Of a stretch of DNA of 64,000 bases, positions 6,539-62,766 are shown one piece after another. The stretch's first letter is position 1. The number at the start of each line of letters is the position of its first letter. This DNA is from Lytechinus pictus (taxonomy: Eukaryota): positions 6,264,001 to 6,328,000 of the forward strand of contig NC_087251.1 in NCBI RefSeq assembly GCF_037042905.1, read 5' to 3'. The notes beneath the pieces are model-generated. The model saw only the letters and a program-made list of their open reading frames with translations. It was not told the DNA's origin and did no database searches. The position numbers and the translations under genes are program-made.

Positions 6539-6749
6539 TTACATACCATATCACATACTTCATCAATATTTTTTTATTAGATAAATAAATTCCTGGTATA
6601 TCTTTCTATGGGATTTTATAATAAAGTGTTATAATAGCAAGCTAAATCACAGGGGAAAACATCATGATCAAACCTGTCAAAACAAAATATGTGTAAATAT
6701 ACCATTTTCAACACTAATTTGTATCCATACTTTTGCGGCCATTTGAAAT

Positions 6750-7722
6750 AACAAGTGGAACGCCTCTGGCAGTCTCACCTGCATTACGCGATTCAATATA
6801 GCAGCAGTGCTAACTTTGAAAACTACTATAAAATAATCATTCACAAAAACACCATTCATATAATGACATAATACCACGTTCATTGACCATAGATGACATT
6901 TGAACGGTGACTTAAGACTTGTCAACTACACCCATGTCCACATTTTATTCACTCTATCCATAAACTTTCAAAGTTATGATGGCAATTCAACAATTACCCC
7001 AACATGGCCTAAGTTTATTGACCTTAACTGACCTTGGTTTTGTGACCTGAAACTCACAGGGGATGTTCAGTGATACTTGATTACTCTTATATCCCAAGTT
7101 TTATAAAATAGATCCATAAACTTCAGAGTTAGGATGGTAATTCAACAAATACCCCCAACACGGTCATGTGACCTGAAACTCGTACAGGATGTTCAGGGAT
7201 ACTCGATTACTCTTATGTCCAAGTTTTATGAACTAGATCCATAAACCTTCAGAGTTAGGATGGTAATTCAACAAATACCCCCAACTTGGCCAAAGTTCAT
7301 TGACCCTAAATGACCTTTGACCTTGGTCATGTGACCTGAAACTCGTGCAGGATGTTCACTAATACTTGATTAACCTTATGTCCGAGTTTCATGAACTAGG
7401 TCCATATACTTTCTAAGTTATGATGTCATTTCAAAAACTTAACCTTCGGTTAAGATTTTGAAAATAATTCTCCCAACATGGTCTAAGTTCATTGACCCTA
7501 AATGACCTTTGACCATAGTCATGTTACCTGAAACTCAGGCAGGATGTTCAGTAATACTTGATTAATCTTATGTCCAAGTTTCATGAACTAGGTCCATATA
7601 CTTTTTAAGTTATGATGGCATTTCAAAAACTTAACCTTAGGTTAAGATTTGATGTTGACGCCGCCGCCGCCGTCGGAAAAGCGGCGCCTATAGTCTCGCT
7701 CTGCTATGCAGGCGAGACAAAA
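6750..7722 (-). mobile_element. Helentron-associated (HINE/DINE-1-like) non-autonomous element with internal TGACCTTTGACC-rich tandem units
   Basis: Reverse-complement copy of 46248-47261; short subterminal IR GTCTCGCCTGCA/TGCAGGCGAGAC; T-rich insertion site. Confidence 0.65.
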
Positions 7723-17550: not shown

Positions 17551-17983
17551 CCATTAGGCCCACTTGTGTACAGATGGGGGCTCTTGCCCTCCCCCAATTT
17601 CACGACCAAGAAAAAAAAAGAGAAATGGGGCACGGGTGAAATATGATATCATTTCCTGAATATTATGCGAAAATCTGTCACAATTAAACTTGGATTTTTG
17701 TAATGAAATGGTCGAAATTTATGCTCGATTGCAATTTTTTTCATTTTACGCGATACGCCATATTATCGAGCCCCCTCAAAACTTTTGGCTCACTGATATG
17801 AAAAGGCCGATATTCGAACGAGATTTTATCAATTTTACTGCCGGGAATAATTTTTTGATGGCTTACGCGGTGCAAAGTACGAGCACGCTCGACACTACCC
17901 GGTACCCGATAGCTTAGTCCGTAGTCGTGCAGTTCGTCTCTAAATCTGTTTCGCCCCCTTTTCGCCGAACCTGGTGCAAGGAA

Positions 17984-18067
17984 ATGCCTTCCCAAATCAT
18001 CTCACATTGTAGATTATTGGCTCGATTTCCTGCCAGAATCATCGGTCAATCAATCTCAAACAAGATG
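17984..18067 (+). CDS. MRPL49: Mitochondrial ribosomal protein L49, exon 1 (MPSQIISHCRLLARFPARIIGQSISNKM; probable mitochondrial targeting peptide)
   Basis: ATG, 28 codons, phase-0 ATG|GTAAGT donor matching the phase-0 acceptor of exon 2. Arg/Ser-rich with no acidic residues. Removing the 24-kb insert leaves a ~1.1-kb intron. Confidence 0.75.
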
Positions 18068-18440
18068 GTAAGTGAAGTGAGTGAACGGAGTGTCGAGCAT
18101 TACCATGTCTGCGCGTGCGACTTGTTTTGAACTAATTTGCCATTGGAAGTAACACGTTTTTGTGTTATTGTCAATGGCAAATATGTACATAACAAATCGC
18201 TTGCGCGGAAATGTACATATTTGCCATTGACAAATAGTACACGTTTCTAGCCTTGAGGACTTCGTGATGATATATTTTAATATTTTGACATATACTTCTT
18301 CATCACGAGGCCTTGAACCCCCTCCCAATGACGCATAACCATGTGTTTTTGTGTTGTGATTGCGGCCTCAGCTCAGCCAAGTACGACTAGACTAGTAATA
18401 GAGTTACCAAAAGGTCGGCCGATCCACTGAGCAAAATTGC

Positions 18441-18965
18441 TGTTGTAAAAATGAGATGTTGGTTAACGATGGCACAGACACGATGCGATAAACGATGGCG
18501 AGTGGTTATTAATGACAAGTACAACACTGACAAGGATTAGGACTCACGAATACACGAGTGGGTTACCGACGGTACGAAACAGTGACAACAACTAATACTT
18601 ACCTGACTCTTGTACTGACGATGCCACACGGTAGATACAGATAACAGGTTTCTTATAAGACTTCTAATAACAGACCACGGCGCCGGGTGGGGATGCAGCT
18701 GGGTTGCGTGCGTCCACACTCGTTGGCGTCTCGGGGTCTTCTCCCTATGGTGTCTTGTCTGGATCTCTTGCACCAGCTTGTGTACGTGCTGTGCAACGCA
18801 CACACGTAGCATGCGTAGGAGCATACAAAGGCTCCTCCAATCAGGACGCTCCTCGCATGCACACAGCACACACACAGACTTAACATACATGAACATAGGT
18901 CAATACATAGACTAATACACAGACTAATACATATACATGTACAGGTACATGGCAAATTTACTACA
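18441..18965 (-). repeat. 3' LTR (525 bp)
   Basis: No difference from 25520-26044 seen by eye; imperfect terminal IR TGTTGTAAA/TTTACTACA. Confidence 0.95.
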
Positions 18966-18979
18966 TTCCTCCCGGTTCC
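18966..18979 (-). other. Polypurine tract (GGAACCGGGAGGAA on minus strand)
   Basis: Purine-rich run abutting the 3' LTR. Confidence 0.7.
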
Positions 18980-19970
18980 ATCAGATTGCGACATATATTG
19001 ACAAATCCATGAATTGGCTATATTGTGCAATCTCAATAGATATATAAACAGATATGAGGAACTCTGACAGAAGAATGTAATATATGCCTATATGATTAAA
19101 ACTGATTAAATACATAACATCAATAAAATACCTCAAATACATTGAAAATGTAATCTGAGGACATAAACTATACTAAACAACTTGTTCATTAAAAACATTG
19201 CTGGTCCAGCAAAATTAAACATATCATCACTTGAGACCAGCAAATATACACTTGGAGAAACAAGAGCAGGTTAATGGTAAGTATTAATCCGGCCATTCTG
19301 GCCCAGTCTTGTCTATGTATTGATACAAAGGTTATCTTCTCATTTAGTGCAAGTCTGAATGACTGAAAGAAGATATGTTCATCCTTCAAAGTGCACTACT
19401 TGACAAAGATTCTTAAAGTTGACTCTTGGTCAGTGCTTTATATTAAATTGTATATTGTACTATTAAAATAATGACAATGGAATAAAGCCAATTTGGCTGG
19501 AGCTCTATTACCAATTAATATAGGCCTGTACAATGTGACCTTTACAGATATGATATATAATTGGTCATATGTTTGAGCTCTTAAAAACATATAAAAATGT
19601 AAGGATAATTCAACCAGATCTGGTGCAAATAGATATAACAGCCTGGACTTGACATACATACATAGTATTTTCCCTTGAGAAAAAACTACTACTATTTCAA
19701 CATCCTGTATGACAATATTTCCAGGATTGTTTATAAAGCTTTTGCAAACAAAGTAAAAAGATCTATGGTTGAAATATCTATATCTTTATGTAGTATAAAA
19801 TATACAAATATGATAAAAAGAATTATCTATTGCATAACCAGTGTTTGCACCTATTACTTCATATGTCACCTGAAGAGGTAAAAACTATTGAAAAATAAGA
19901 GGTGTGCCTTCACCTTCAGTGACTATAAAATGAATTATAATGCCTAACAGAAATTTCAATTGCAGGACTT

Positions 19971-21515
19971 TCAGCAATCGATCAAGGAGATACTACTCCA
20001 TTCTTGGGGTGGTGGCCAGGGAGGAAGGAGCCATGGACAAGATAAATGGAATTGGCCATTACTTACACTACAGACATATTTCTGGTTCCACCAGAGGAGA
20101 GAACTGAGGAAATCAAGGATAGATAACTTAGGAGGGGTAATTCCCCAAAGTAATTGCACAAGGTAACTCTGCCCGTGCTTGGCATCCTCAGTAGAGGCTC
20201 GACTGTCCTCTGATACAGTTACAAGACTTATATTATCTACACCTATGGTATTAACTGTAACATCACTTACACATGTGGTATTGACAGTTACATCGTCTAC
20301 ACATGTGGTATTTACAGTTATATCATCTACACTTAAGATATCTACATGTTTTACTGCTAAACGTTCTGGACAGTTTCTCTTAAAGTGTCCAGACTTGTTA
20401 CATGCAAAACAAACATCACGACAAGACACCTTGGATTCAGTGTCTTCTGTCGAAGGAGAACATGTAAGCTCATTCAGGTCTTGAACAGCCGTGACCAATG
20501 CCTGGACTGTAGACTGTAAGGACTTCATCTGTGTGTCTAGAGATTGAAGGTTGTCGACCTTCTTCTCAATACTTGACAAACGGTCCTCCAGCCTGTCCAG
20601 ACGAGAGGGCAGCTGAGCATTAGAAACGCGCCCGGAAACACCCATACGGTTGATTCTGGGATCCTCCTCAACAGTATCGTACGGCATTTGTCTTGCATAC
20701 TTCTGCTTACACTGAAACAACTGAACTCTGTAAATGGCTTCCTCAAGAGTCTGCGGATGTGAATTAAGAGCATATTGTCCCGCTTCGTGGTCTAAGGAAC
20801 CCTGGCAAAATTTATAAATGATTTTCTTCCCAACAATCTCCTCAGGCTGTCCTTCAAATGCACGTGCGGCAAGAGATAAGACACAACGTGCCCAATCTAT
20901 TTCAGATTCAGTTGTAGCCTGTTTTGACGAATTGAATATCAATTCGTCTTCAGGAGTCTCCTGGGAAACATATCTTTGTTCAAACTTCTTGATCAAATTT
21001 GTATAGGAAATGTTTTGTTCACGACCAAGAACTAATGCCAGAAATTCACTTGCACTTCCCTCTAAACAGTAGCAAAACTGATTGCGCTCTTGGGCTTGAT
21101 CCCAACCATTTGTCTCAGAATACAGTTGGAATTTACATAAGAAAGACTGCCAACTCCCTCTGCCATCGAAGGTCAAGAACTTGGGCAACGAGGAAACCCC
21201 CGCACCAGAAGTACTCCCACGAGAATAAGAACTGTGGGCACCACAACCTCGATTGAAGGGGGGAGGCTTTGCACAATCATAACGGCATTTATTGGCACAT
21301 TTAAGTACAAGATCTGCTAGATGGAAATCGGATATACCATATGCCTGTGAATAATCAAACGTAGTACCAAACTCAACTACAAAATTGTCAGGATAATCTA
21401 GCTTGTATAGATTCCTTGCCAGTAAACCCTCAGTTAAGTATCTGTTTCTCGTACGAAGGTGTAAAATGTCTTCAACTAATCTTTGTTTTGCTCTAGCGAT
21501 ATCACTTTGCATCAT
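19971..21515 (-). CDS. gag: Gag-like polyprotein (~514 aa from first ATG): capsid domain, coiled coil, CCHC zinc knuckle, repetitive/hydrophobic tail
   Basis: LPKFLTFDGRGSWQSF...F...NGW...LEGSA...Q...ES capsid pattern and CFACNKSGHFKRNC knuckle. The ORF-track start at 21527 is a TTG; first ATG is at 21515. Confidence 0.88.
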   Translation of the reverse strand: MMQSDIARAKQRLVEDILHLRTRNRYLTEGLLARNLYKLDYPDNFVVEFGTTFDYSQAYGISDFHLADLVLKCANKCRYDCAKPPPFNRGCGAHSSYSRGSTSGAGVSSLPKFLTFDGRGSWQSFLCKFQLYSETNGWDQAQERNQFCYCLEGSASEFLALVLGREQNISYTNLIKKFEQRYVSQETPEDELIFNSSKQATTESEIDWARCVLSLAARAFEGQPEEIVGKKIIYKFCQGSLDHEAGQYALNSHPQTLEEAIYRVQLFQCKQKYARQMPYDTVEEDPRINRMGVSGRVSNAQLPSRLDRLEDRLSSIEKKVDNLQSLDTQMKSLQSTVQALVTAVQDLNELTCSPSTEDTESKVSCRDVCFACNKSGHFKRNCPERLAVKHVDILSVDDITVNTTCVDDVTVNTTCVSDVTVNTIGVDNISLVTVSEDSRASTEDAKHGQSYLVQLLWGITPPKLSILDFLSSLLWWNQKYVCSVSNGQFHLSCPWLLPPWPPPQEWSSISLIDC

Positions 21516-24049
21516 TATGCATTCCAAATAAATTCAGAAAAGTATTATTGATGATCACCCTGGTGATTCAAAGGCATATTCTTAAACATATTTATTAACT
21601 GTCATAAATCCAAATTCAACGATCTACAGTGTATTAAACTTAACAGAATAAAACTTGCAGATCAGTGAAAGAACTTAACTACCGGTAGGTTTGATATACT
21701 TCTTTAATCCTGTGTCACTGAATACACTTACTGCCAAGGAAAGAGTGAAGTATTGCAATACTTGTACTGCCAAGAACAAGCATCTGAATATTTGAATAAT
21801 AAATGTATGTACACACTCCTGTAGCAATGGATGTATTCAGTGAAAGTATATTTACAAATTACAGTGCAGCTTCCAGTTTCAGAAACTACACTTGTAGAAT
21901 AGAATATCAAACATCTACTACTCTGAGTAATCGCAGAAGTGTCAATAAGTTTTACTTACTCTTAGGCCCTACTTACTCTACAACTATTAAAAGAACCTAA
22001 CAAGGATTCAACTTATTGAAACCTCAACGATTACAGGAATATCATGACAATTGTCTATTCCTGATGAATACAATATATAAATGTCAAACACACATTTATC
22101 CCACATCCGATTTTTTTTTTTTTTTTTCTTTTTTTTTAGAATGGGGATAAGTCACCAATTAAAAAAATGAAGGTGAATGGTAACGAGCCTAAAAGTGACT
22201 CTGTTTTGAAATTCACTTGCGCAAAATGACAGCAGTGAATTCTGTATTTCACTGAAGGATTGAATTCTTGAGCTTTAACAGAAATTTGCAAATTTTCAGC
22301 GCAAGAATGATGCTCCAAAAATACAACAGAGCAAACCGAATGAATAAATTGATTTTTTTTTTGTATTTTTTTTTTTTTTTAAAGAATGTTGATATCAAAC
22401 ATTGATTCTGATATCAAAGATTGATAGTATCTGTACTTTCACTTAAAATCAGAGTAAAGAGTTGGTTTGATTAAAAATAAGTATCTTCAAGAGCCTTATT
22501 AAAATTTAATTCAGTACTTCTTGTACCTTCAGTGAGATCTATCTCTCCTTAAAATCTAGAAGTTAAATTTACAAGCAAGAATTATTCCAAAGAAAAATTC
22601 CTGATCTAACAATGCTTGATAGAATTAATCAACTAAGAAAACCTAAATTTCAAACAGACAGAAAGACAATCCAGGATAACCTCCAAGAAAAATTTCCTAC
22701 AAAGAACTAAGGGCCTGAAATTAAATTCCAAGTCCTCGTTCAAACAAGTTAACACCGAGTCAAAAGGCAAAGCAAAACAATTGCACTTGTTGGCTCCAGG
22801 TATACACTGTCAGGAAACTACAAACACCTGAGAGATTAAACAAGATTATCGGCTGCAAAGATCCTTAAAAATCCTAAGTAATAATGGGATTTGATATAAA
22901 ATTAAGACAATTGAATTTTTCTAACCTGGACTAAATTAAGTATTTTAGCGTTAGGGTTAGAAATTGAACTTCCAAGATTTTTAGTAATCAGGACAAGTGC
23001 TTATTTACTGATCCACTAAGTAAATTAAAGATCCAAAAAGACTAACGTTAATTTTAACCTCTATATTGTTAACGTTAAATCTGAAGGTAAGCTCATAAGA
23101 TTAATTAAATAAATTCTTTTGAGTTTCCAGTAAGACACGAACTGACTGTATCTCAAAGATACAAAACTGCAAAGTGCTACTGCACGTACCTCACAGGTAA
23201 TATAAACTCGAGGTACCGGTACGGTACACCATACAAATCTAACGTTGAGGCCCAAGCTTGGGGAGTTAAATTTAACAAACACGAAATATGGCAGTATGAA
23301 ATCAATGAATTTAGCTCAGTTCGCGTAAACATTAAGTCAAGAGACAATTGGCAGCTAAATCCAGCAAATTATCATTAAAAATTGACGAAATGAAAACTCG
23401 TTCAGAATCAGCCTCCACGAAGCTGCGACGATAGCCGGCTCGTGAACGTTATCCCTGCCTGGAGCTACGGGCCAGATAGAGAGGTGCGTTGCGCTGGGGT
23501 TGGTTTGGAAACTGCGCGACGTTAGACCTAAAATTAACTAATAAAGAATGATCAAATTACAAAAACAACTTCTACGAGTTCCTGCTTGGAACTACTCTTT
23601 AGAATAAATCAACGTTCAATCGCGATAATCGTATAAAATCAGAGTTTAGCAACTTCTAACTCTGATCGACTGTGTTTTATACGAGAGTCTCGATCAAGTG
23701 AAAAAAATATACAAGTCACGTGATTCGGCTCAGCAGTCTTTCGCCGAGCGAGCTAGGCGAAGGTAGATTGTCAATTTTTGGTCAAAACAATCTTATTACT
23801 TTTTGACTTGCAAATCAATGAAAATCAAAATAAGCACTTATATTTATAAATAGTGATGATTCAATTTACTTCGAATCAAACGACATATAAACATGTAAAC
23901 ATGAAGAACATAGAGAACAATTTATCTAGATTATCAAGAAATTAATAGCCTACCGGTTTCTCTGCAAACTACACAATTTCAAAAAATTATGGAGCCTACA
24001 CCCAACCAGCCCAAACTACCAATTATTTGATATGGAAGATAAAATTATT

Positions 24050-24240
24050 CAGACTTCTCTTTCCCAGTCCCAACGGGTCTGACACTGGTATTGACAAAAG
24101 TCTATTCACACAAATATTTCAGACTTCTCTTTTTCCAGTCCCAACGGGTCTGACACTGGAATTATTATACAGAAGACGTCTTATCACACAAATAATTCAG
24201 ACGTCTATTTTCTCCAGTCCCAACGGGTCACACTGGAATT
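24050..24240. repeat. Three copies of a ~70-80-bp unit (CAGACTTCTCTTT.CCAGTCCCAACGGGTCTGACACTGG) in the LTR element leader
   Basis: Core motif recurs near 24050, 24120 and 24198. Confidence 0.8.
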
Positions 24241-25501
24241 ATTTATAGAAGTCTATTATATTCACACACAAATCTACCGAGTGGGTGAACAATTAGCAAC
24301 AATGAGTAACAATAACTTTTAGATTGAATTTAAGACAATGACAATCACAGTTATTAAAGAGAAACAATCACAATATCAGATGTGATGAATGAAATGCTTT
24401 AAAGAAAATTCACAAGATGTGTATTGATTAAGAACAAAATTCAAGAGTATATTTTCAAGTTACAGGTAAGATCCGAAGCTCAGAAAACCCACCTATTTTC
24501 TAGTAACAGGTAAGATCTGAAATTCAGAAAAACCCACCTCTAACGTACCACCGACACAAGTGTAATTTCGAGCTGGGTAAAAATTTGAAGTAAATTCAGA
24601 CTATTACTCAACTCGGCAACCAGGAGTATTAGAACTTCTAACACTCTTTCTGCCACTCAATGTGTACAGAACTGGCTGTAAAAAACACTTGCCGAATGTC
24701 GATAGAAAATATATACTGGAAATTTTATAGAAATATATGAACAGCAACTCTACGCCCTCAAAATATTGGTGCACTGCCCGATATGCAAGAGTATGAAATT
24801 CTAGGAAACTTATACCATCTGGAATAATTACTGAGGATCGAGAGAAAATTTCAAGTTCAAATTAACTTTTCCAATCCAATAAATCCACCAAATACTCACA
24901 CCCGACTTTTTTTTTTTTTGGAAGTGGTGTGGTGTGAATGTTCCGAATTCGGAAGAAATCTTTAAAGACAATGGCGGACTAAAAATATCCAAGCCTAGAT
25001 GCAGATTTCAAAAGAATTCACAAACAAAAGCAACAAGATGGTAAGCGACGCAAAAATATGCAAGGAACGAAATTCCCCGCGACGGCGAGCCAAACAATAG
25101 AAGAGACTCGCGAAGAATGCGATAAAAAATGCAAGTGCAACTAAACAATGTAGGGCGTGTGCACAGAGAATACCACGTGCGTTGCAATAAAAATGAACGT
25201 AGTGGACATGAAATTCCCTAGATATGGCAAATATATATCAAAATCCACTTGTAACAAACAAGAAATTATATCATGTACGGAAAAATGGTAGAACTAAAAC
25301 AAGGTGTGTGCGAGATGCATGCGAATCCACGCAATCACGGCACGCAAATTTCCAATTCTCGGTAGAGCGGAAAACTTCTCACTCACTCTCCGTTCGTTGT
25401 ACTCTTCAAAATCACTCACAAATGACTTTCATGAGCAAATATGAAGTATGAACGGACATGAAATGATGAAAATAAATATGACAGGCGCACAGGACGATCC
25501 G

Positions 25502-25518
25502 AAAACTCGCAATCGCCA
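25502..25518 (-). other. Primer-binding-site-like sequence (TGGCGATTGCGAG...)
   Basis: TGG starts 1 nt after the 5' LTR, complementary to a tRNA CCA end; cognate tRNA not identified. Confidence 0.55.
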
Positions 25519-25519
25519 A

Positions 25520-26044
25520 TGTTGTAAAAATGAGATGTTGGTTAACGATGGCACAGACACGATGCGATAAACGATGGCGAGTGGTTATTAATGACAAGTA
25601 CAACACTGACAAGGATTAGGACTCACGAATACACGAGTGGGTTACCGACGGTACGAAACAGTGACAACAACTAATACTTACCTGACTCTTGTACTGACGA
25701 TGCCACACGGTAGATACAGATAACAGGTTTCTTATAAGACTTCTAATAACAGACCACGGCGCCGGGTGGGGATGCAGCTGGGTTGCGTGCGTCCACACTC
25801 GTTGGCGTCTCGGGGTCTTCTCCCTATGGTGTCTTGTCTGGATCTCTTGCACCAGCTTGTGTACGTGCTGTGCAACGCACACACGTAGCATGCGTAGGAG
25901 CATACAAAGGCTCCTCCAATCAGGACGCTCCTCGCATGCACACAGCACACACACAGACTTAACATACATGAACATAGGTCAATACATAGACTAATACACA
26001 GACTAATACATATACATGTACAGGTACATGGCAAATTTACTACA
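25520..26044 (-). repeat. 5' LTR (525 bp)
   Basis: Direct repeat of 18441-18965; the ORF track gives an identical 119-aa translation in both copies. Confidence 0.95.
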
Positions 26045-26827
26045 TTGCTATGGGCAAATGAAAAGTCAATTGCAAGTGCGTAAACAGTGTGCATTGCCAC
26101 CATCGTCTGTTCTCGACGGCAAAAATGAGCATTGAAATGCTTTTCCTCAGCAAATTAGTTCATCTTAGTGAAAAAAATTAGGCCCTGTGTTTTTTATATT
26201 TAAATTTACTTATGTGGGATGAAGTGTCTTACCTTCATGTGGTATCGAAAGTGACGTTTGGAGGTTAAATCCACGAGAAATCCACAGAGTTTCGTCGCGT
26301 GTATTCGCTATGGAGAAAAATGCGTGCGATCGCATGCGTTATTGCAAGCTCGAGACGGCGCTGTTGAACTTGGTCTGGAAATTCATAAAAAATAAACAAA
26401 AATCCTTGAGTAGGCTCACAATAAAATCATAAAAAATATGCTTTATGGCTAAAACGGTAGTTCTCTTGCCCACACATATCATACTTGTTGTTGCGTAAGA
26501 AATCCTTTTTTCATGATAAAAATATAGCAATAAATGTTTTAAAAATTATGTTTTCCATATGGAATATGTTTGAAACATCTATATTAGAAGAAAAATGTGT
26601 TTTTTTAATGAATTCAAACTAAAATGAAGTTTATACATGCCTGTACTTTTTCATACTACTCAAAAAACTAAATGGGCCGTCAATCAACGTTGGTTACCTC
26701 GGCAAGTAGGCGTGGTCTATCGTGAAGTTCGCTGGTGACGTACCTTTCTCGCTAGACTTTACTCAGCCGCCGAATTTAATTCATTCTCCGCGCACGTGCA
26801 ACTGCAACTTATTATCGTCACTGCACT

Positions 26828-33441: not shown

Positions 33442-34627
33442 TATATAGGCCCTATTTTTTTTGCTTGTCAATTTTTAGGGACGAAATGACTTTGAATTTT
33501 TGGTAAAAACATTTTGTAATGCTTATCAAATTTGCATCGGGAAAATGTGCCCTCCATAGGCCCTGTCCCCCCTAAATCTGAGGTTGGGACCATTGGCAAC
33601 GGAAAGCAAAAATTTAGGGGAGGGGGACCACCAAAATTTTGTGACAAGCCCCCCCCCCCCCAAAAAAAAAGGTTTATCAACCAAATTTTAGGGGAGACCC
33701 CATGAAATTTTTAGGGGGGTCCACTGAAATTTAGGGGGCACGCAGGAAAAAAAATTGACAAGCAAAAAAAAAAGGTTATCGACAAAAAAATTAGGAGGGG
33801 GGGGGGCGATTGTCCCCCACCTCAAATTTAGGGGAGACACGACCCCCCCCCCGCTGCCTATGGGGGGACGTTGTTACCTTTTTTGGGGGCTAAATTTTTT
33901 TTTTTCGGTCCCCCTTTGATAACCTTTTTTTGTCAAAAATTTTGGTGCCCCCCCCTAAATTTTTTTGATTGCCGCCGCTAATAGTGCCCTCCCCCCTTTG
34001 GAAAATCCTGGACCCTCCCTTGCCTAGATATAGATGTTTAAAGAATTTATTATTTTGAAAGTCAGTGCCCCCGCCCCCCATGCTTTAGTTATCATGGCAT
34101 AAAACTTATGTCATATCTAATCCTTATATCAGCAAGAGGTCAGAGCATACTATCCGTCACCAAACGACTGCATTTGAGCCATTTTTTTTTCTCTTTTCTC
34201 TTCTTTCTATTTTTTGTTGTTATTTAATCATTGTTTATTTGGATAAGCTCGGATCCGAGACTAACTGGGACGGTGAACGCACTTTCGTTCGAGTTGTGTA
34301 TTTGGGTAACAATAGGCCGAGGCGAGAAAGGACACGCCCACAATCCCTCGTTCAGTGCCGAGCTCTGTGCATACGTGTCGACGAAATTTCAAAATGAAAT
34401 TTGTACACAAATCTGTCACAATTCGGACCCACTTTAGCCTCAGATTAACAGATATTTAGATCTCTTTGGAACACTAAAAGTCATTCACTTGGGGTTTTTT
34501 AATATGCTGATTCAGGTGAGGTACTTTTCAATGCTTTTAAACATAGATTTAAAAAATTAGATTTTCGTTTTGGGATCCCTACTAGTAATACTAATTATAC
34601 TAATAGTATACTCTGTAAAGAGGACTG

Positions 34628-37600
34628 TATGAAGCCCCAAACCGGACATTTTTTACAACGAAAAAAAAAAAATTATTACGTACGTACGTGGTATTATTAC
34701 GTACGTACGTAGTATTATTACGTACGTACGTAGTAATTATTACGTACGTACGTGGTATTAATACGTACGTACGTAGTATTATTACGTACGTACGTAGTAA
34801 TTATTACGTATGTACGTGATATTATTACGTACGTACGTAGTATTATTACGTACGTACGTAGTAATTATTACGTACGTACGTAGTATTTATTACGTACGTA
34901 CGTAGTATTATTACGTACGTACGTAGTATTTATTACGTACGCACGTAATAAGCACCTCGCCAAACCTGTCGAGGAACCTGTATATAGAGTTTGGATTAAT
35001 ATATGGATGTCAAATTTTTCCATTCATTTATTTCGATTTCCCCGCCTTTTGAGGGCTTTTGTGACTCCGGGGTGTGATTACATATTCACATTACAGCACA
35101 TTGAATGATCGCTATGTGAGTTTGCTGGGCAATATGGGGAGAGCGGGGGCGGGGCCGGGTCACCTCTCCCACGTGTGATCGAGCTTCGTAGTCAGTTTAA
35201 TGGCGTGGCAATTTAAGAATCAAAATTAACTATATTGTACGGTCAAAGAAACATCGTCATAAAAATCCACTGGGGCCAGCATAGGCAGATCCAGGTGGTA
35301 AAGGAGCCGCCCCTAGCTCCCCCATTGGCGACGCGAAAAAAGGGGGAAAGAAAGAAAAAAAAGGAAAGGAGGGAAGGGAAAGGAAAGGATTTTAAAAAGA
35401 GGCAAATAAGAATAGGGAGCTAGACGAGTGAATGAAAATAAGGTGAGGGGAAAACTTTGAAAATAAAAAAATCTTGATCATGCAGCTACAGTATATAACA
35501 TTTTTGCTCTTGCTCCGCGCTCTCGTTGCCTGTTATGAGATAGGCCTACATATATCTTGCTCAACAGGCTGAAATGGAGATAAACAAAACATATCCAGCT
35601 CGGACATCGAGCTTTTATTTATTTTGTGTAATTTACTAATTGATTTTTAAGTGCTCTGTATTTTTTTTTTAATGCATGGTCTGCATCTCAAAATATCTCA
35701 GCTCGAGCTTCGCCCTCGCGCATTATTCATGTGGGAAAATAACCATCCTTTTCATGAAAATATGACTAGAGTATATAGGCCTATCCTATTTCGGGATTTA
35801 AATTTCAAACTTTGCGCTCGCATCAATCTGCCTATATCATGTTCATAATTATAAAAAAAAAGGTGCTTAGAAATGTCCAGTTTTTAGGTCCGAATATCAA
35901 TTTTTTTCATTTTTTTTCTCGGGCACTTTAATCTTTAAAAGGGCACCGACAAAAGTTTAAGATTTAGATAGCAGTATAACTAAACAATTTATTGATGCGA
36001 GCGGAAAAAGTTTGAGATCGAGATCTAAAAACTGAATATTTTATTTTTAATTATGAAAAGGATGGTTATCTTCCTTTATGAATAATGCGAGCGCGAAGGA
36101 ATACAAATAATGCAACTAAACAATAATTGATGCGGCGAGCGCAAAGCACGAGCGGAAAAAGTGTGAGATTTAAGAAAACGGGATATTCTATTTTGTTACT
36201 ATATATTTTTTTAACCTAGTTTTTAATTTAATGACAGGCCGAATGAGAACGCGAAATTTTGGAATTCATACAGAAGTATTCTCACTAACCAAAACACGAG
36301 CTCGCAGTGCTAGTTGATATTTTTTTTACAATAAGACCTGAACAAAAGACCATCTTGAGAACTTTATGGAATACACAAAGAAGGACCTAGTTCACGTTTC
36401 AAATAATGCGAGTGCATATCAGACAAAATAATGAATGCTCTATGTCCGAAATGGAATATGTTTGTGTACTGACTTAAAATTGAATATTTTAAGCTCCATA
36501 TCAACCTTTATAAATTGACATGAAAGATTACTTTTTCAAAGTCTTCGACCGCCCCCCTCATTTTATTCACTCGTGACCCGTCTTCATATTTTCTTTTTAC
36601 CCTCTCCTTTCCTTTTTTTTTTCTTTTTGAGTCCCGAAGTTTTCTTATTGCGCCGCCAATAGGGGGAAGGGGGGGGGGCGCTGTCCTTTTCTCTTGGATC
36701 CGCCTTTGCTGACCCCTGCACTTAAAAAAAAATCTTTTAGGATGTTGGTGATAATAGCAATGTTTCTATGAACGTACATTATGCTAATTTTTATGTTCTT
36801 GTTACTCCACAAACTGACTTAGCTCGATCACATAATGTATAAATATTATAATGCCAACACTATTATGGGAGGGGTGACCCCCCCTTAAGTGTCCAGCAGA
36901 TCTATAGTCACAAAAGGTGTGGAAATCGAAAGTATAGTCAAAATCTATAGTCCGACTGTCATTGATCTGTTAAGATTACAGGTTCGACGAGGTGCTTATT
37001 ACGTACGTACGTAATAAATACTACGTACGTACGTATTAATACTACGTACGTACGTGATAATATTACGTACGTACGTAATAATACTACGTACGTACGTGAT
37101 AATACTACGTACGTACGTAATAAATACTACGTACGTACGTAATAATTAAATACTGAATAAATCCCTTTTGTTCAGGTCTGATTGCAAAAATATATCAGCT
37201 AGCACTACGCGCTCGCATTTTGGTTGGTGAGAATACTTCTGTATGAATTCCAAAATTTCGCGTTCTCATTTGGCCTATTATTAAATGAAAAAAAAAATCC
37301 TTTTTATGAATTCATAATCCTTATTGTCTCTTTTTTTAGATCGGAATATCAACAATATTTTCAGCTCGCCCTTAGGTAGAGGAACTAATAATAGTTATCC
37401 TTTTCATATGATGACAAAATGTGCTTAGAATGTCCCGTTTATAGGTTAAATAAATATAGTAACAAAATAGAGTATCCCGTTTTCTTAAATCTCACACTTT
37501 TTCCGCTCGTGCTTTGCGCTCGCCGCATCAATTATTGTTTAGTTGCATATTTTGTATTCCTTCGCGCTCGCATTATTCATAAAGGAAGATAACTATCCTT

Positions 37601-38926
37601 TTCATAATTAAAAATATAATATTCAGTTTTTAGATCTCGATCTCAAACTTTTTCCGCTCGCATCAATAAATTGTTTAGTTATACTGCTATCGAATCTTAA
37701 ACTTTTGTCGGTGCCCTTTTAAAGATTAAAGTGCCCGAAAAAAAGCAAAAAATTGATATTCGGACATAAAAACTGGACATTCTCAGCACTTTTAAAAAAT
37801 AATTATGATCACGATATAGGCAGATTGATGCGTGCGCAAAGTTTGAAATTTCAATCCCAAAATAGAATAGGCTTATATTCTCTAGTCGTATTTTCATGAA
37901 AAGGATATATTTTCCCACATGAATAATGCGCGAGGGCGAAGCTCGAGCTGAGATATTTCGAGATGCAGACCATTAACAAAATACAGAGCACTTAAAAATG
38001 AATTTGTAAATTACACAAAATAAATAAATCTCGATGTCTGAGCTGAATATGTTTTGTTTATCTCCATTTCAGCCTGTTGAGGAAGATATGTAGGCCTATC
38101 TCATAACAGGCAACGAGAGCGCGGAGCAAGAGCAAAAAAATTATATACTATGTAGCTGCATGATCAAGATTTTTTTATTTTCAAAGTTTTCCCCTCACCT
38201 TATTTTCATTCACTCGTCTCCCTATTGTTATTTGCCTCTTTCCTTTCCCTTCCCTCTCCTTTTTTTTTTCTTTCCCCCTCTTTTTGCGTCGCCAATGGAG
38301 GAGGGGCGGCCCCTTTACCACGTAGTGGATCTGCCTATGCTGGCCCCTGGATTTTTATGACGATGTTTCTTTGACCGTACAATATAGTTAATTTTGATTC
38401 TTGCCACGCCACAAACTGACTACAAAGCTCGATCACACGTGGGAGAGGTGACCCCCGCCCCCCGCTCCCCATATCGTCCAGCAAACTCACATAGCGATCA
38501 TTCAATGTGCTGTAATGTGAATATGTAGTCACACCCAGGAGTCACAAAAGGCGGGGAAATCGAAATAAATGAATGGAAAAATTTGACATCCATATATTAA
38601 TCCAAACTCTATATACAGGTTCCTCGACAGGTTTGGCGAGGTGCTTATTACGTACGTACGTAATAAATACTACGTACGTACGTAATAATACTACGTACGT
38701 ACGTAATAAATACTACGTACGTACGTAATAATTACTACGTACGTACGTAATAATACTACGTACGTACGTAATAATACTACGTACGTACGTAATAATACCA
38801 CGTACGTACGTAATAATTACTACGTACGTACGTAATAATACTACGTACGTACGTAATAATACCACGTACGTACGTAATAATATTTTTTTTTTTCGTTGTC
38901 AAAAATGTCCGGTTTGGGGCTTCGTA
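34628..38926. mobile_element. IS3EU-like non-autonomous foldback DNA transposon, 4,299 bp, ~1.7-kb inverted arms, subterminal (TACG)n arrays
   Basis: Ends TATGAAGCCCCAAACCGGACATTTTT / AAAAATGTCCGGTTTGGGGCTTCGTA (TAY...RTA). 6-bp TSD GGACTG (34622-34627, 38927-38932). 34628-~36350 mirrors ~37165-38926. Confidence 0.8.
34672..34950. repeat. Minisatellite, 21-23-bp unit TATTATTACGTACGTACGTAG; related arrays at ~36996-37146 and ~38645-38880
   Basis: Directly visible tandem array with a palindromic ACGTACGTACGT core. Confidence 0.95.
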
Positions 38927-43574: not shown

Positions 43575-44357
43575 GTAATCAATTTCTTCAAGACAAACAG
43601 AAACAATATTATTGTAAAAAGACTTAAATTGTTTATCTCTCTTTACTGAAGATGGAGATACAAAACCTTAAAATCTGGTATATTGGTGATGATTCTTGTA
43701 ATGGTCTGGTATTATTAATGTACATGGTAGTTCTCTTTCAGAAGATCACATCAGTTGTACTTAACTGAACTTTTTCTGAAACACTTACAGGATACATACA
43801 ACTAATCCGTCAATGTAACCCAAATGCAAGAACAAATGTATCTATCAACCATGCTATAGAGGATGTAAATCCCTCTCCATTAAAATGCTCTGAATCTCAT
43901 TCACTACATTGACATATTCTATTCAGTAGTAATGAAAGGTCTATTAACAGTGGTATTGTAGTTTTGGACCATGCTATTCATTTATTCGAGCTCTTATGTC
44001 AGATATATTGTAGTTCACCAGAAACAGAATATTTATTGGATATATGTTGTATATTTATTTCAATGTATCTTTATGAATATTCTGAAGTAGAAATCAGTGA
44101 GGTGTACTCAGTTACTTGTATAAAATGATAGTGGATGGTGATGACAATGAATAGAAGTACATGTGCTAGTAAATGGATACATTGCACATCAACAAAAATG
44201 CTTCATTTCAAATGTTTGTGTTGTCACTTGTCAGAGGCTTTTATCTATTTATCTTATTTCAATTTTTAGTCTGTTATAGTGTTGGAAACATATCATTTTA
44301 ACATTTTACTAATCATAACATTTTACTAATCATAACATCTTTCCTCTGTTTCTTTAG

Positions 44358-44482
44358 GTCCAGCATCAGATGTACCATACAGTGTTAGCAGGACACGGTA
44401 TCATCAGATACCTGTTTTCACAGAAACTAAGAAAACTACACAACACTGGACACTGGTCAAGAACATCAAGGGAGATATTTGG
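44358..44482 (+). CDS. MRPL49: MRPL49 exon 3 (GPASDVPYSVSRTRYHQIPVFTETKKTTQHWTLVKNIKGDIW)
   Basis: Polypyrimidine-TTAG acceptor and TGG|GTAAG donor; phases consistent; PY.V.R...IPV...I.GDIW motif (Img2/L49 family). Confidence 0.93.
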
Positions 44483-44576
44483 GTAAGAGTTATCTGTGTT
44501 GTTCTGTTCCTTTCTCTCTTCACTTGGTATCTCAGTCTAGTTGTGTATTGTGTCTAGGTTGCCTAGTTGTGTCTAG

Positions 44577-46135: not shown

Positions 46136-47694
46136 AGGGATGGTCCGGGCTGAACGTATTTATAGATTAATAAATAGAGTAGAATTCACTGAGCAAAATA
46201 CCGACAATTTCATCGAAATCGGATAACAAATAACAAAGTTATTGAATTTTTGTCTCGCCTGCATAGCAGAGCGAGACTATAGGTGCCCCTTTTCCGACGG
46301 CGACGCCGGCGGCGGCGTAAACATCAAATCTTAACCTAAGGTTAAGTTTTTGAAATGACATCATAACTTAGAAAGTATATGGACCTAGTTCATGAAACTT
46401 GGACATAAGGTTAATCAAGTATAACTGAACATCCTGCCTGAGTTTCAGGTCACATGACCAAGGTCAAAGGTCATTTAGGGTCAATGAACTTAGACCATGT
46501 TGGGAGAATTATTTTCAAAATCTTAATCGAAGGTTAAGTTTTTGAAATGACATCATAACTTAGAAAATATATGGACCTAGCTCATGAAACTTGGGCATAA
46601 GGTTAATCAAGTATTAGTGAACATCCTGCTCGAGTTTCAGGTCACATGACCAAGGTCAAAGGTCATTTAGGGTCAATGAACTTTGGTCAAGTTGGGGGTA
46701 TTTGTTATATTACTATCATAAGTAACTTTGAAAATTTATGGATCTAGTTCATGAAACTTAGACATAAGGTTAATCAAGTATTAGTGAACATCCTGCCTGA
46801 GTTTCAGGTCACATGACCAAGGTCAAAGGTCATTTAGGGTCAATGAATTTTGGCCAAGTTGGGGGTATTTGTTGAATTACCTTCATAACTCTGAAAGTTT
46901 ATGGATCTATTTAATAAAACTTTGGATATAAGAGTAATCAAGTATCACTGAACATCCCCTGTGAGTTTCAGGTCACAAGGTCAAAGGTCAGTTAAGGTCA
47001 ATAAACTTAGGCCATGTTGGGGTAATTGTTGAATTGCCATCATAACTTTGAAAGTTTATGGATAGAGTGAATGAAATGTGGACATGGGTGTAGTTGACAA
47101 GTCTTAAGTCACCGTTCAAATGTCATCTATGGTCAATGAACGTGGTATTATATGAATGATGTTTTTGTGAATGATTATTTTATAGTAGTTTTCAAAGTTA
47201 GCACTGCTGCTATATTAAATCGCGTAATGCAGGCGAGACTGCCAGAGGCGTTCCACTTGTTAAGTTTAGCAATATTTTGTGAAAACAGTTGTCATGAATA
47301 TTCATCAGGTGGGTTGATGATGTCACATCCCCACTTGTTCTTTGTATTTTATTATATGAAATTAGGTTTATTCAAATTTTTTCCTCCAAGAACTAGAAAA
47401 ATTGGATTGACAACTGATTTAGTGCATTAGATATTTATTGCTGCAACTTATTTCATTATAAGGGAGACATATTATTCACACAAGTATGAAATAATGAAAA
47501 AATTACGATTTTATGTAATAACATAAGAAAACGGAAAGTGGGGATGTGACATCATCAGCCCACCTAATGAATATTCATGACGACTGTTATCACCAGATAT
47601 TGCTAAACTATAAACTTCAATAACTTTATTATTTGCTCAGTGAGTTCTACTCTATGTATTAAGATAAAAATGTTTTCAGCCCCGGACCATCCCT
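46136..47694. mobile_element. TTAA-flanked MITE (Kolobok-like)
   Basis: TTAA|AGGGATGGTCCGGGCTGAA ... TTCAGCCCCGGACCATCCCT|TTAA. Confidence 0.78.
46248..47261 (+). mobile_element. HINE/DINE-1-like element nested in a TTAA MITE; partial relatives at ~51740-52010, ~61350-61840, ~62200-62270
   Basis: TTTTGTCTCGCCTGCATAGCAGAGCGAGAC start, ~175-bp internal tandem units, GCAGGCGAGACTGCCAGAGGCGTTCCACTTGTT end. Confidence 0.7.
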
Positions 47695-61290: not shown

Positions 61291-62766
61291 GTAATTCTTA
61301 GATCAGTTTTATCATCATGACAATTTCATCATGATAAATTCAACATCGAAATATTAACCTAAGGTTAAGTTGTGGAAATGTCACTTTAACTTAGAAAGTA
61401 TATGGACCTAGTTCACGAAACTTGGACATGAGGGTGCTCAAGTATTATTGAACATTCTGCCTGAGTTTAGGTCACATGATCAAGGTCAAAGGTCATTTAG
61501 GGTCAATGAAATTTTGCCATGTTGGGGGTATTTGTTGAATTGCCATCATAACTTTGATAGTTTTTGGATATAGTTCATGAAACTTGGAAAGAGTTATCAA
61601 TATCACTGAACATCCCGTACAAGTTTTAGGTCACATGACCAAGATCAAAGGCCATTTAGAGTCAATGAACATATATAAGAGTAATCAAGTATGAAAGAAT
61701 ATCCTGCATGAGTTTCTGGTTGCATGACCAAGGTCTAATGTTATTTAGGGTTAGTATTCCATTCATTATTCCGTAGTCAGCACTGCTGCTATATTGAATC
61801 ATGTAATGCAGGCGAGACTGCGAGAGGTCCTCCACTTGTTAGGTATTTTTACACCATTATCGCATAAGATTTTACATAGAGTTTACTATATATCCAACTA
61901 TCCAAATCTTTTCTAATGATTTGGCACTATCAGATCCAAATTGCAATAACAAAATCCTCTTACTGAAATCCAAGAAGAAGAAAAAGAAACTTTTATATTA
62001 TGGCCCACATTGGTAAGTTAAGCTCTTTTACTTCTACCATTTGTTTAACTTGAAACTGTATAGATAGGCCTAGATAGTGACCAGCTCCATGCTTTCATTT
62101 CACCATAATGTGGACCCTTCCCACATGCGAGTGCCTCAGGTGATGGTTTGTGTACACTACACTACATGAACCATCAGGTTGAGTCAATAGAAATTGGACT
62201 GTCAATTTACAACTTGTTTACTTGCTATATTGCATTGCGTAATCCAGGCAAGACTACTAGTACCAGAGGCGTCTATTTAAATAATTGTTGAAATTAGTAT
62301 GAAAATAAGGGTCTGTCACCAGAATTTAAATTTTGGGGGTCAAAATTGAATTAAATATAGTCTGCAGGTTTCGTTAGGGTCAGTGTTATGGCAAACAAGT
62401 AATTGGTTTCTTTTGCTTAAACAAGATTTCTTCTCACTGGAACTTCATTCATTTTGCTAGAACTGTGCATTGACTTTCCCCAATGTTGCATTATCCACCC
62501 TGTGTTTTTCCACATGGTTAGAGTATTTTATGGCCAGTAATTTAATATGCCTTCTGGCAATTCCATAAAATGACAAAGTTATAGTAAGCAATGTAATTTC
62601 CTGGCAAAAGACCCTTGCCTTGGATTTTGGGCTGGCACAACTTTTTCTTGGACCTAGACCAAATATTTTGTCATTTCGTGTTGAGATTTTGACCATGGTG
62701 TAGCCCACTGATAATTTGATTTATTAATCACAAATCATTTTTCTATGGCCTATTGTTTCCCGTCAG

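Follow-up and report, generated by a model that had tools for sequence, protein, structure and literature searches.

How could a long terminal repeat (LTR) retrotransposon that encodes a capsid protein and no enzymes have moved recently, and is such an element a member of a family or a single accident of deletion? The question is raised by a stretch of 64,000 nucleotides (nt) from the sea urchin Lytechinus pictus (NCBI RefSeq assembly GCF_037042905.1, contig NC_087251.1, positions 6,264,001 to 6,328,000 of the forward strand; hereafter the window, with positions counted from its first letter), the minus strand of which carries an LTR element with a gag gene and no pol (Table 1). A reading made from the sequence alone, without database searches, had described a very young Gag-only element from a recently active non-autonomous family that keeps its own capsid and borrows Pol in trans. 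The patterns detected in the present study are largely consistent with that description, and we think it probable that the element is a recent copy of an established non-autonomous Ty3/Gypsy (Metaviridae-derived) family, packaged by its own Gag and mobilized by a helper.

Table 1. Positions of the parts of the gag-only LTR element and of its Gag protein in the Lytechinus pictus window (TSD, target site duplication; PBS, primer binding site; ORF, open reading frame; CA, capsid; aa, amino acids; HhH, as in the names of the domain and its Pfam relatives)
Feature	Position	Strand	Basis or remark
Whole LTR element	18441-26044	minus	7604 nt
TSD TTGC, left copy	18437-18440		flank inspection; occurs once in X9 empty form
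3' LTR, 525 nt, TG...CA, same as 5' LTR	18441-18965	minus	LTR comparison
Polypurine tract beside 3' LTR, purines 12/14	18966-18979	minus	sequence inspection
Non-coding 3' region, AT-rich (31% GC), where pol would be	18980-19970	minus	common to diverged copies
gag ORF, 514 aa, no stops	19971-21515	minus	ORF list; 92% identical L. pictus protein, same end
Gag: family-specific C-terminal tail, aa 385-514	19974-20363	minus	30-bp tandem repeat 20237-20332 inside
Gag: zinc knuckle CX2CX4HX4C, aa 369-382	20370-20411	minus	Pfam PF00098, 23.8 bits, cut-off 20.8
Gag: long helix / coiled coil, aa 305-349	20469-20603	minus	AlphaFold model, pLDDT 85-95
Gag: two-lobed retroelement capsid (CA), aa 106-271	20703-21200	minus	fold and sequence comparison
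Gag: N-terminal helical domain, aa 1-81	21273-21515	minus	weak alignment to HhH-like domain
Non-coding leader, 4 kb, 24 ATGs	21516-25505	minus	common to other copies
78-bp tandem repeat in leader	24042-24268	minus	repeat search
44-bp tandem repeat in leader	24450-24539	minus	repeat search
PBS-like site, TGG start, 1 nt inside 5' LTR	25506-25518	minus	sequence inspection
5' LTR, 525 nt, TATA-like box and splice donor	25520-26044	minus	LTR comparison; RNA reads break at donor
TSD TTGC, right copy	26045-26048		flank inspection

The boundaries are those of an LTR retrotransposon, i.e. direct LTRs with TG...CA ends, a target site duplication (TSD) within the 4-6 bp range and a polypurine tract (PPT) adjoining the 3' LTR. 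There were 0 differences between the two LTRs over 525 nt, and the TSD is 4 bp, with TTGC on both sides and unlike fifth neighbouring bases. The primer binding site (PBS)-like sequence, TGGCGATTGCGAG, reads from 25518 to 25506 on the minus strand, and a TATA-like TATAAG lies at 25736-25731 in the 5' LTR. Identical LTRs, a clean TTGC duplication, a PBS-like site and a PPT had all been reported from the sequence alone, and all of them held on closer comparison. No Rfam family was found around the element at gathering score. Self-priming of the Tf1 type, or a primer built by splicing, was considered and rejected: the PBS paired no better with the LTR of the element than with 24 to 111 of 200 shuffled ones, the longest exact PBS-LTR complement was 6 nt, and no donor-acceptor junction offered at least 7 complementary nt.

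The element is a real, recently inserted copy. Four public sequencing runs were aligned to 17700-25519, of which X1, X9 and X12 carry three organism labels; X9 holds several near-identical contigs, and its label may not denote a distant species. One X9 contig departs from the window at 18441 and continues in the right flank, with 29 of 30 letters equal to 26050-26079, and is an empty site with a single TTGC; X12 has an empty form too, but with another 4-mer at the site. The 0 of 525 differences between the LTRs place the 95% upper bound of their divergence at about 0.6%, corresponding to an insertion age of <0.3 to 1.4 million years at assumed rates of 1e-8 to 2e-9 substitutions per site and year. 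The DNA directly left of the insertion contains a hairpin and a short high-copy repeat (18116-18242 and 18247-18321), and the target itself may have been repetitive.

The 514-aa ORF (21515-19971) is the sole frame longer than 144 aa in the window and, judged by homology and by its modelled fold, is a Ty3/Gypsy Gag. Of Pfam families only the zinc knuckle exceeded its cut-off on the protein, and 2176 relatives were retrieved by a full HMMER scan at E<=0.001, with matches over residues about 105-390. An AlphaFold model built with 120 sequences was confident over the capsid (CA) domain, residues about 110-275 (predicted local distance difference test, pLDDT, mostly >90), with a disordered tail. 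The top Foldseek matches of this model were PNMA2 capsids (E 5e-4 and 6e-4), followed by dArc1, Arc and Ty3. VIA-align gave Z 10.6 against dArc1 (root-mean-square deviation, rmsd, 4.7; 160 residues aligned), Z 10.2 against PNMA2 (rmsd 9.3; 164 aligned) and Z 10.2 against rat Arc (rmsd 7.0; 145 aligned), and its first 31 rows were retroelement or retroviral capsids throughout.

Because the element itself is without pol, its Gypsy origin is assigned through the homology of Gag. The CA domain, coiled coil and CCHC knuckle are homologous to those of an autonomous clade of Gypsy elements with HhH-Gag (L001; P0003-P0151; P0088 from Mercenaria; P0059 from Saccostrea), which on sequence comparison is the probable parent lineage; identity is 34% to L001 Gag over 316 residues and 43-45% in CA to the nearest relatives. 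The metagenome locus L001 (235-9350) is a complete autonomous relative, whose Gag carries the HhH domain, whose Pol lies in the -1 frame and whose third ORF encodes TatD, and the domain order places the clade in Ty3/Gypsy: its Pol contains protease (PR), reverse transcriptase (RT), RNase H (RH) and integrase (IN), with a PHD finger at the integrase end. Its intact HHH_3 domain, TTTAAAC heptamer, PR-RT-RH-IN-PHD Pol and TatD ORF3 are absent or eroded in the present element. Among eight relatives scanned, five had an HHH_3-like N-terminal domain at E<=0.01, with one above the cut-off; three relatives continue into an aspartic protease, and relatives match Pfam PNMA weakly. Mollusc Gypsy elements include many unnamed clades (PMC6238403). 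A second candidate for a pol-less element, L005, turned out to be a fragment that carries a frameshift and has no LTRs, and it has no bearing on the question.

No trace of pol was detected in the element. When 18441-25519 was compared with Pfam in all six frames, stops being treated as X, none of PR, RT, RH and IN reached E<=1; what did match was the zinc knuckle, plus weak coiled-coil and other similarities in the gag frame. A motif scan for protease, RT, RNase H and integrase gave nothing. L001 Pol had no tblastn match in the window at E<=1, while the control with L001 Gag matched at 1e-45; L001 ORF3 gave nothing above shuffles, P0160 revealed no pol remnant either, and the post-knuckle parts of five relatives reached a best E of 0.06-0.3 in low-complexity non-Pol tails, with none in a Pol domain. 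A profile of the Pol parts of 5 relatives scored -7.0 bits on the interior, compared with -8.6 to 3.1 for shuffles (26 of 30 returned a score) and 63 bits for the positive control, an integrase piece of locus L002. The PR-RT-RH-IN Pol of an autonomous Ty3/Gypsy element is present in L001 and P0160 and absent here, and the single long ORF, a Gag, with no pol or env is the arrangement of the gag-only class. The sequence-only reading had seen no protease, RT, RNase H or integrase frame and had named degenerate pol in 18980-19970 or 21530-25500 as evidence that would count against it; Pfam, tblastn and profile found none there. It was also right that about 1 kb without a long ORF separates the gag stop from the PPT, the longest stop-free run there being 115 aa. 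By eye, the -1 frame past the gag stop had resembled the beginning of a protease; Pfam, tblastn and profile searches gave this no support.

The element belongs to an established family and is very unlikely to be a one-off deletion. Two contig pieces span the gag stop and run on into the same 3' non-coding DNA, one in X1 (record 2, 19650-20043) with 18 of 395 letters different and one in X9 (record 15, 19694-20043) with 15 of 350 different, and the leader and 3' region are covered, with depth in 29, 25 and 27 of 30 bins for X1, X9 and X12, respectively. A one-off deletion, which the sequence-only reading had set against its own proposal, was not seen among the pieces displayed, where diverged copies carry the same pol-less gag end; these copies, together with LTR identity, the TSD and the empty site, bear out the recently active non-autonomous family proposed there. 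The only close protein relatives found were two L. pictus gene models: P0001 is identical to Gag at 376 of 409 residues (92%), ungapped and with the stop at the same residue, and P0002 has a tail 71% identical and in common up to 'WWNQ'. P0002 (XP_054750202.1) fuses the C-terminal half of the Gag family to G-patch domain protein 4, a fusion that reflects either a mistaken annotation or a chimeric transcript. Neither the pattern of LTR ends and PBS nor copies of the element were found in viral_contigs, and a single-query search of metagenome_contigs found no copies. For longer fused forms of Gag a single query, which is weak evidence, found none and a profile found one distant Gag-Pol.

The CA domain is selectively conserved within the family. 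Gag and P0001 differ at 4 of 167 positions in CA, 5 of 109 in the coil and knuckle and 22 of 130 in the tail (CA vs tail, Fisher p=1.3e-5). Among displayed single-piece contigs of X1 and X9, with X12 and the split record 5 of X1 excluded, those in or mostly in the ORF (n=4) had 0.95% substitutions and none was gapped, compared with 3.15% substitutions and 7 of 10 gapped for contigs outside or mostly outside it (n=10); 10 of 12 displayed indels were internal to the element and none fell in the ORF. These measures are proxies for selection rather than dN/dS.

Transcription of the family is low-level and mainly sense. The RNA evidence comes from one raw-read run, X21 (6% of the run), in which 215 reads were placed, 41 of them at >=99% identity, and is evidence at the level of the family and no proof for the present copy. 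The first mate was on the plus strand for 76% of internal depth, which is sense RNA under the usual stranded protocol, and three reads connect the PBS end to an LTR. A canonical splice donor lies in the LTR (exon end 25682, minus strand; 18603, minus strand, in the other LTR), with a branch-like CTAAT and YAG 76 nt past it. At this donor 11 reads break to outside sequence, the joined exon being absent from the window, and 4 reads connect the donor to an AG in U3, either by splicing of the 5' LTR onto the 3' LTR, with loss of the entire interior, or by back-splicing. The LTRs of the family may therefore drive chimeric transcripts.

The mechanism we favor can be outlined as follows. The ancestor would have belonged to the marine-invertebrate clade that has HhH-Gag, a -1 frameshifted PR-RT-RH-IN-PHD Pol and, going by the one complete relative, possibly a TatD third gene as well. 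The family would have lost all of pol long ago and retained gag. RNA from the 5' LTR promoter would be translated to Gag, whose zinc knuckle would bind the element's own RNA and which would co-assemble with the Gag and Gag-Pol of an autonomous Gypsy helper into mixed particles. Within these, helper RT would use the PBS, presumably with a primer tRNA, and the PPT of the element, and helper integrase would produce the 4-bp TSD. Retention of gag may then reflect preferential packaging of the element's own RNA. We infer the helper, the primer tRNA, assembly and packaging from the anatomy of the element and from precedent, in that trans-mobilized gag-only families are known (PMC4350172, PMC12067270).

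Several observations weigh against this scenario. The material displayed comprised 24 of 855 contig pieces, 24 of 239 loose ends, 12 of 140 indels and 40 of 565 substitutions, and a pol-bearing branch could hide among the undisplayed pieces. No piece spans the element, no other copy was read over its full length, and a helper with matching LTR ends or PBS was not seen in the data covered. The empty forms could stem from a paralogous site, because the left flank is partly high-copy repeat. Displayed substitutions in the ORF were synonymous in 6 of 12 cases vs 25% expected, a borderline result (p=0.053). No splice to the gag start occurred among the 215 RNA reads, and a leader of this length with so many ATGs is a poor template for scanning. 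Finally, the last position of the major-homology region (MHR) consensus QX3EX4(aromatic)X2R (PMC8278194), held in 112 of 118 relatives, is altered in both Lytechinus copies, as is the next-to-last position, held in 102 of 118. Variation within the family was also seen: record 5 of X1, from a relative at greater divergence, has 633 letters for 198 in the 5' part of gag (21253-21452), making the gag linker 435 nt longer, a multiple of three, and X12, despite a deep leader and 3' region, leaves the part encoding CA uncovered, with no depth at 20832-21353 (within 20681-21354), a gap that alone proves nothing. Together these hint at sister or gag-less derivative subfamilies, and record 5 also counts against the scenario.

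Alternative explanations differ in how much of this they accommodate. One is that the insertion is not particularly recent, or that the family has ceased to move, and that LTR identity arose through gene conversion or assembly collapse. Family reads and contigs are indeed mostly 90-99% alike to the copy, 41 of the 215 RNA reads reach >=99% identity, and several LTR variants occur in all the reads at their position, so that most family LTRs differ from the present one; but this would not account for the clean TSD, the empty forms in X9 and X12, the unbroken ORF and the intact PPT and PBS, and we consider it quite improbable. It would be more surprising still if the element had arisen at this locus from an autonomous one by a single internal deletion, with gag intact only through youth. 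Such an origin would suit the lack of a second complete copy and the normally autonomous state of clade relatives (L001, P0160, P0088, P0059, P0076), but copies diverged by 4-8% have the same gag end and downstream non-coding DNA, the junction is without a frameshift heptamer or pol residue, and a simple deletion adds neither a 30-bp repeat nor a conserved new stop.

A further alternative concerns Gag, the ends of which are remodelled. The tail after the CCHC knuckle is 132 aa, compared with a median of 30 aa in 111 relatives, 1 of which reaches 100 (116 of 159 proteins had the knuckle; the 111 are non-Lytechinus proteins not running into protease, near-duplicates included). This tail is partly a 30-bp repeat around a remnant of the junction motif, N422 and G425 aligning to the clade's C-terminal 'N-x-x-G', and has no look-alike in the Atlas; codons 383-514 contain no frameshift heptamer, whereas a TTTAAAC sits at the end of gag in the relatives L001 and L005. 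Two hydrophobic helices are weakly predicted at aa 451-480. The N-terminal domain is probably an eroded copy of the clade's HhH-like domain, with the second half of which it aligns weakly (3.2 bits, equalled by 6 of 500 shuffles; hhalign probability 4.9%); Pfam found no HHH match in this region, and the single-sequence fold of residues 1-87 was poor (pLDDT 47.6). The CA domain sits on a long unresolved branch (1.45 vs a median end branch of 0.48) in a tree of 47 rows whose bootstrap was not settled and whose sample has no autonomous Lytechinus Gag, which inflates the branch. Mutations in the MHR impair assembly in orthoretroviruses (PMC6525542, PMC3383448), although the MHR of Ty3 was mis-assigned and such assignments in Ty3-type capsids can be structurally wrong (PMC6525542). 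In view of the deviating motif and of that caution about its assignment, capsid competence of Gag is no more than likely. The ~514-aa gag that had been called intact thus has an unbroken frame and a deviating last major-homology position, and the statement that the family keeps its own capsid is favored by the fold and CA conservation and weakened by that deviation.

It could be, then, that Gag no longer builds a normal capsid alone and is kept as a minor co-assembling subunit or competitor that redirects or dampens helper particles, or for the host embryo, possibly with membrane contact through the new hydrophobic tail. We regard this, tail included, as unlikely but worth serious attention. 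The MHR deviation in both Lytechinus copies, the long CA branch, the eroded N-terminal domain, the lengthened tail and the conservation of CA between copies are all compatible with it, and Bik-1/Bik-2 provide a precedent (PMC12067270). On the other hand, CA retains 34 of 40 strongly conserved columns, departures from as many columns occur in 12 of 118 relatives, the CA domain is modelled with confidence, the MHR assignment may itself be in error, the maximum 19-residue hydropathy of the tail (1.15) is too low for a transmembrane helix, RNA depth is low for the portion of the run covered, and the branch is inflated by the sample. A Gag part-way repurposed, with CA under purifying selection, MHR altered, HhH lost and a hydrophobic tail gained, that modifies helper particles or serves the embryo while the element still jumps, is an idea we hold somewhat more doubtful again. 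A recent copy of a Gag-packaged, helper-mobilized family remains the explanation we prefer.

Comparison with known systems sharpens this picture. The sequence-only reading had drawn a parallel to TR-GAG elements of plants, which have LTRs, PBS, PPT, TSD, a lone Gag ORF, no pol and recent activity (Chaparro et al. 2015, PMC4350172). The layout fits, including signs of recent activity and a helper not identified in either case, but TR-GAG elements are <4 kb with a 5-bp TSD, whereas the present element is animal, is 7604 nt owing mostly to its 4-kb leader and has a 4-bp TSD; moreover TR-GAG is a structural class of many origins and no lineage (PMC4350172). Closer animal precedents are zebrafish BHIKHARI and chicken ENS-1, the latter named as a nonautonomous variant (PMC12067270). 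Bik-1 and Bik-2 likewise have one long Gag ORF (617 aa in Bik-1) and neither pol nor env, and they moved very recently, with polymorphic TSD insertions, but are lokiretrovirus-derived with an N-terminal coiled coil and glycine-rich patch, in contrast to the Ty3/Gypsy-type CCHC Gag here, and a developmental function was demonstrated for Bik Gags (PMC12067270), whereas such a role of the present Gag would be hypothetical. Sea urchins are rich in non-autonomous LTR elements of the Troyka type (62 of 70 non-autonomous Troyka families; Kojima 2025, PMC12440569). Membership in Troyka was rejected on ends, TSD and knuckle, these being CG...CG, 3 bp and CX2CX8-10HX4C in Troyka (PMC12440569) and TG...CA, 4 bp and CX2CX4HX4C here. 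Arc, dArc1, PNMA2, PEG10 and MOAP1 have the same two-lobed capsid fold, so that the suggested link to Arc/PNMA-type genes holds for the fold, but nothing indicates domestication: those are fixed host genes without LTR mobility, whereas the element is a dispersed, LTR-bounded and apparently polymorphic repeat, and a domesticated capsid gene is at odds with the LTR-bounded repeat with an empty-site form. In mammalian MaLR elements the internal ORF is gag-derived. These form a large non-autonomous LTR group with ERV-L as autonomous partner, of retroviral class III origin and with only traces of homology (PMC6466679). No description of the present family was found in the literature searched, which did not extend to Repbase, Dfam and most subscription papers, and families such as this one may already be catalogued in Repbase or Dfam.

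Elsewhere in the window, the sole Pfam match among 95 frames of at least 72 aa outside the element was an exon-sized frame at 44336-44554 on the plus strand, matching Img2 (mitochondrial ribosomal protein L49 family, E 4.4e-11). Nested long inverted repeats at 34600-38900, with arms of 252, 247, 139 and 108 nt at 92-99% identity and 21-bp TACG-rich tandem arrays at both ends, resemble a foldback element. Inverted copies of a repeat of about 0.9 kb lie at 6749-7675 and 46301-47262, 93-99% alike in segments and with subunits of 126-192 nt, and there is a partial copy near 61350-61770. There were no tRNA genes in the window.

The finding overturns nothing. It adds an invertebrate Gypsy-derived case, with a parent clade that can be named by its anatomy, to a layout known mainly from plants and vertebrate endogenous retroviruses. 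Why such parasites retain gag is still debated, with self-packaging on one side and service to other elements or the host on the other, and a young family with a conserved CA and remodelled ends, in a sea urchin genus used in embryology, is a handy test case. If its Gag does prove to be repurposed, the family would parallel zebrafish Bhikhari as a Gypsy-derived case among invertebrates, in a sea urchin that is amenable to genetics.

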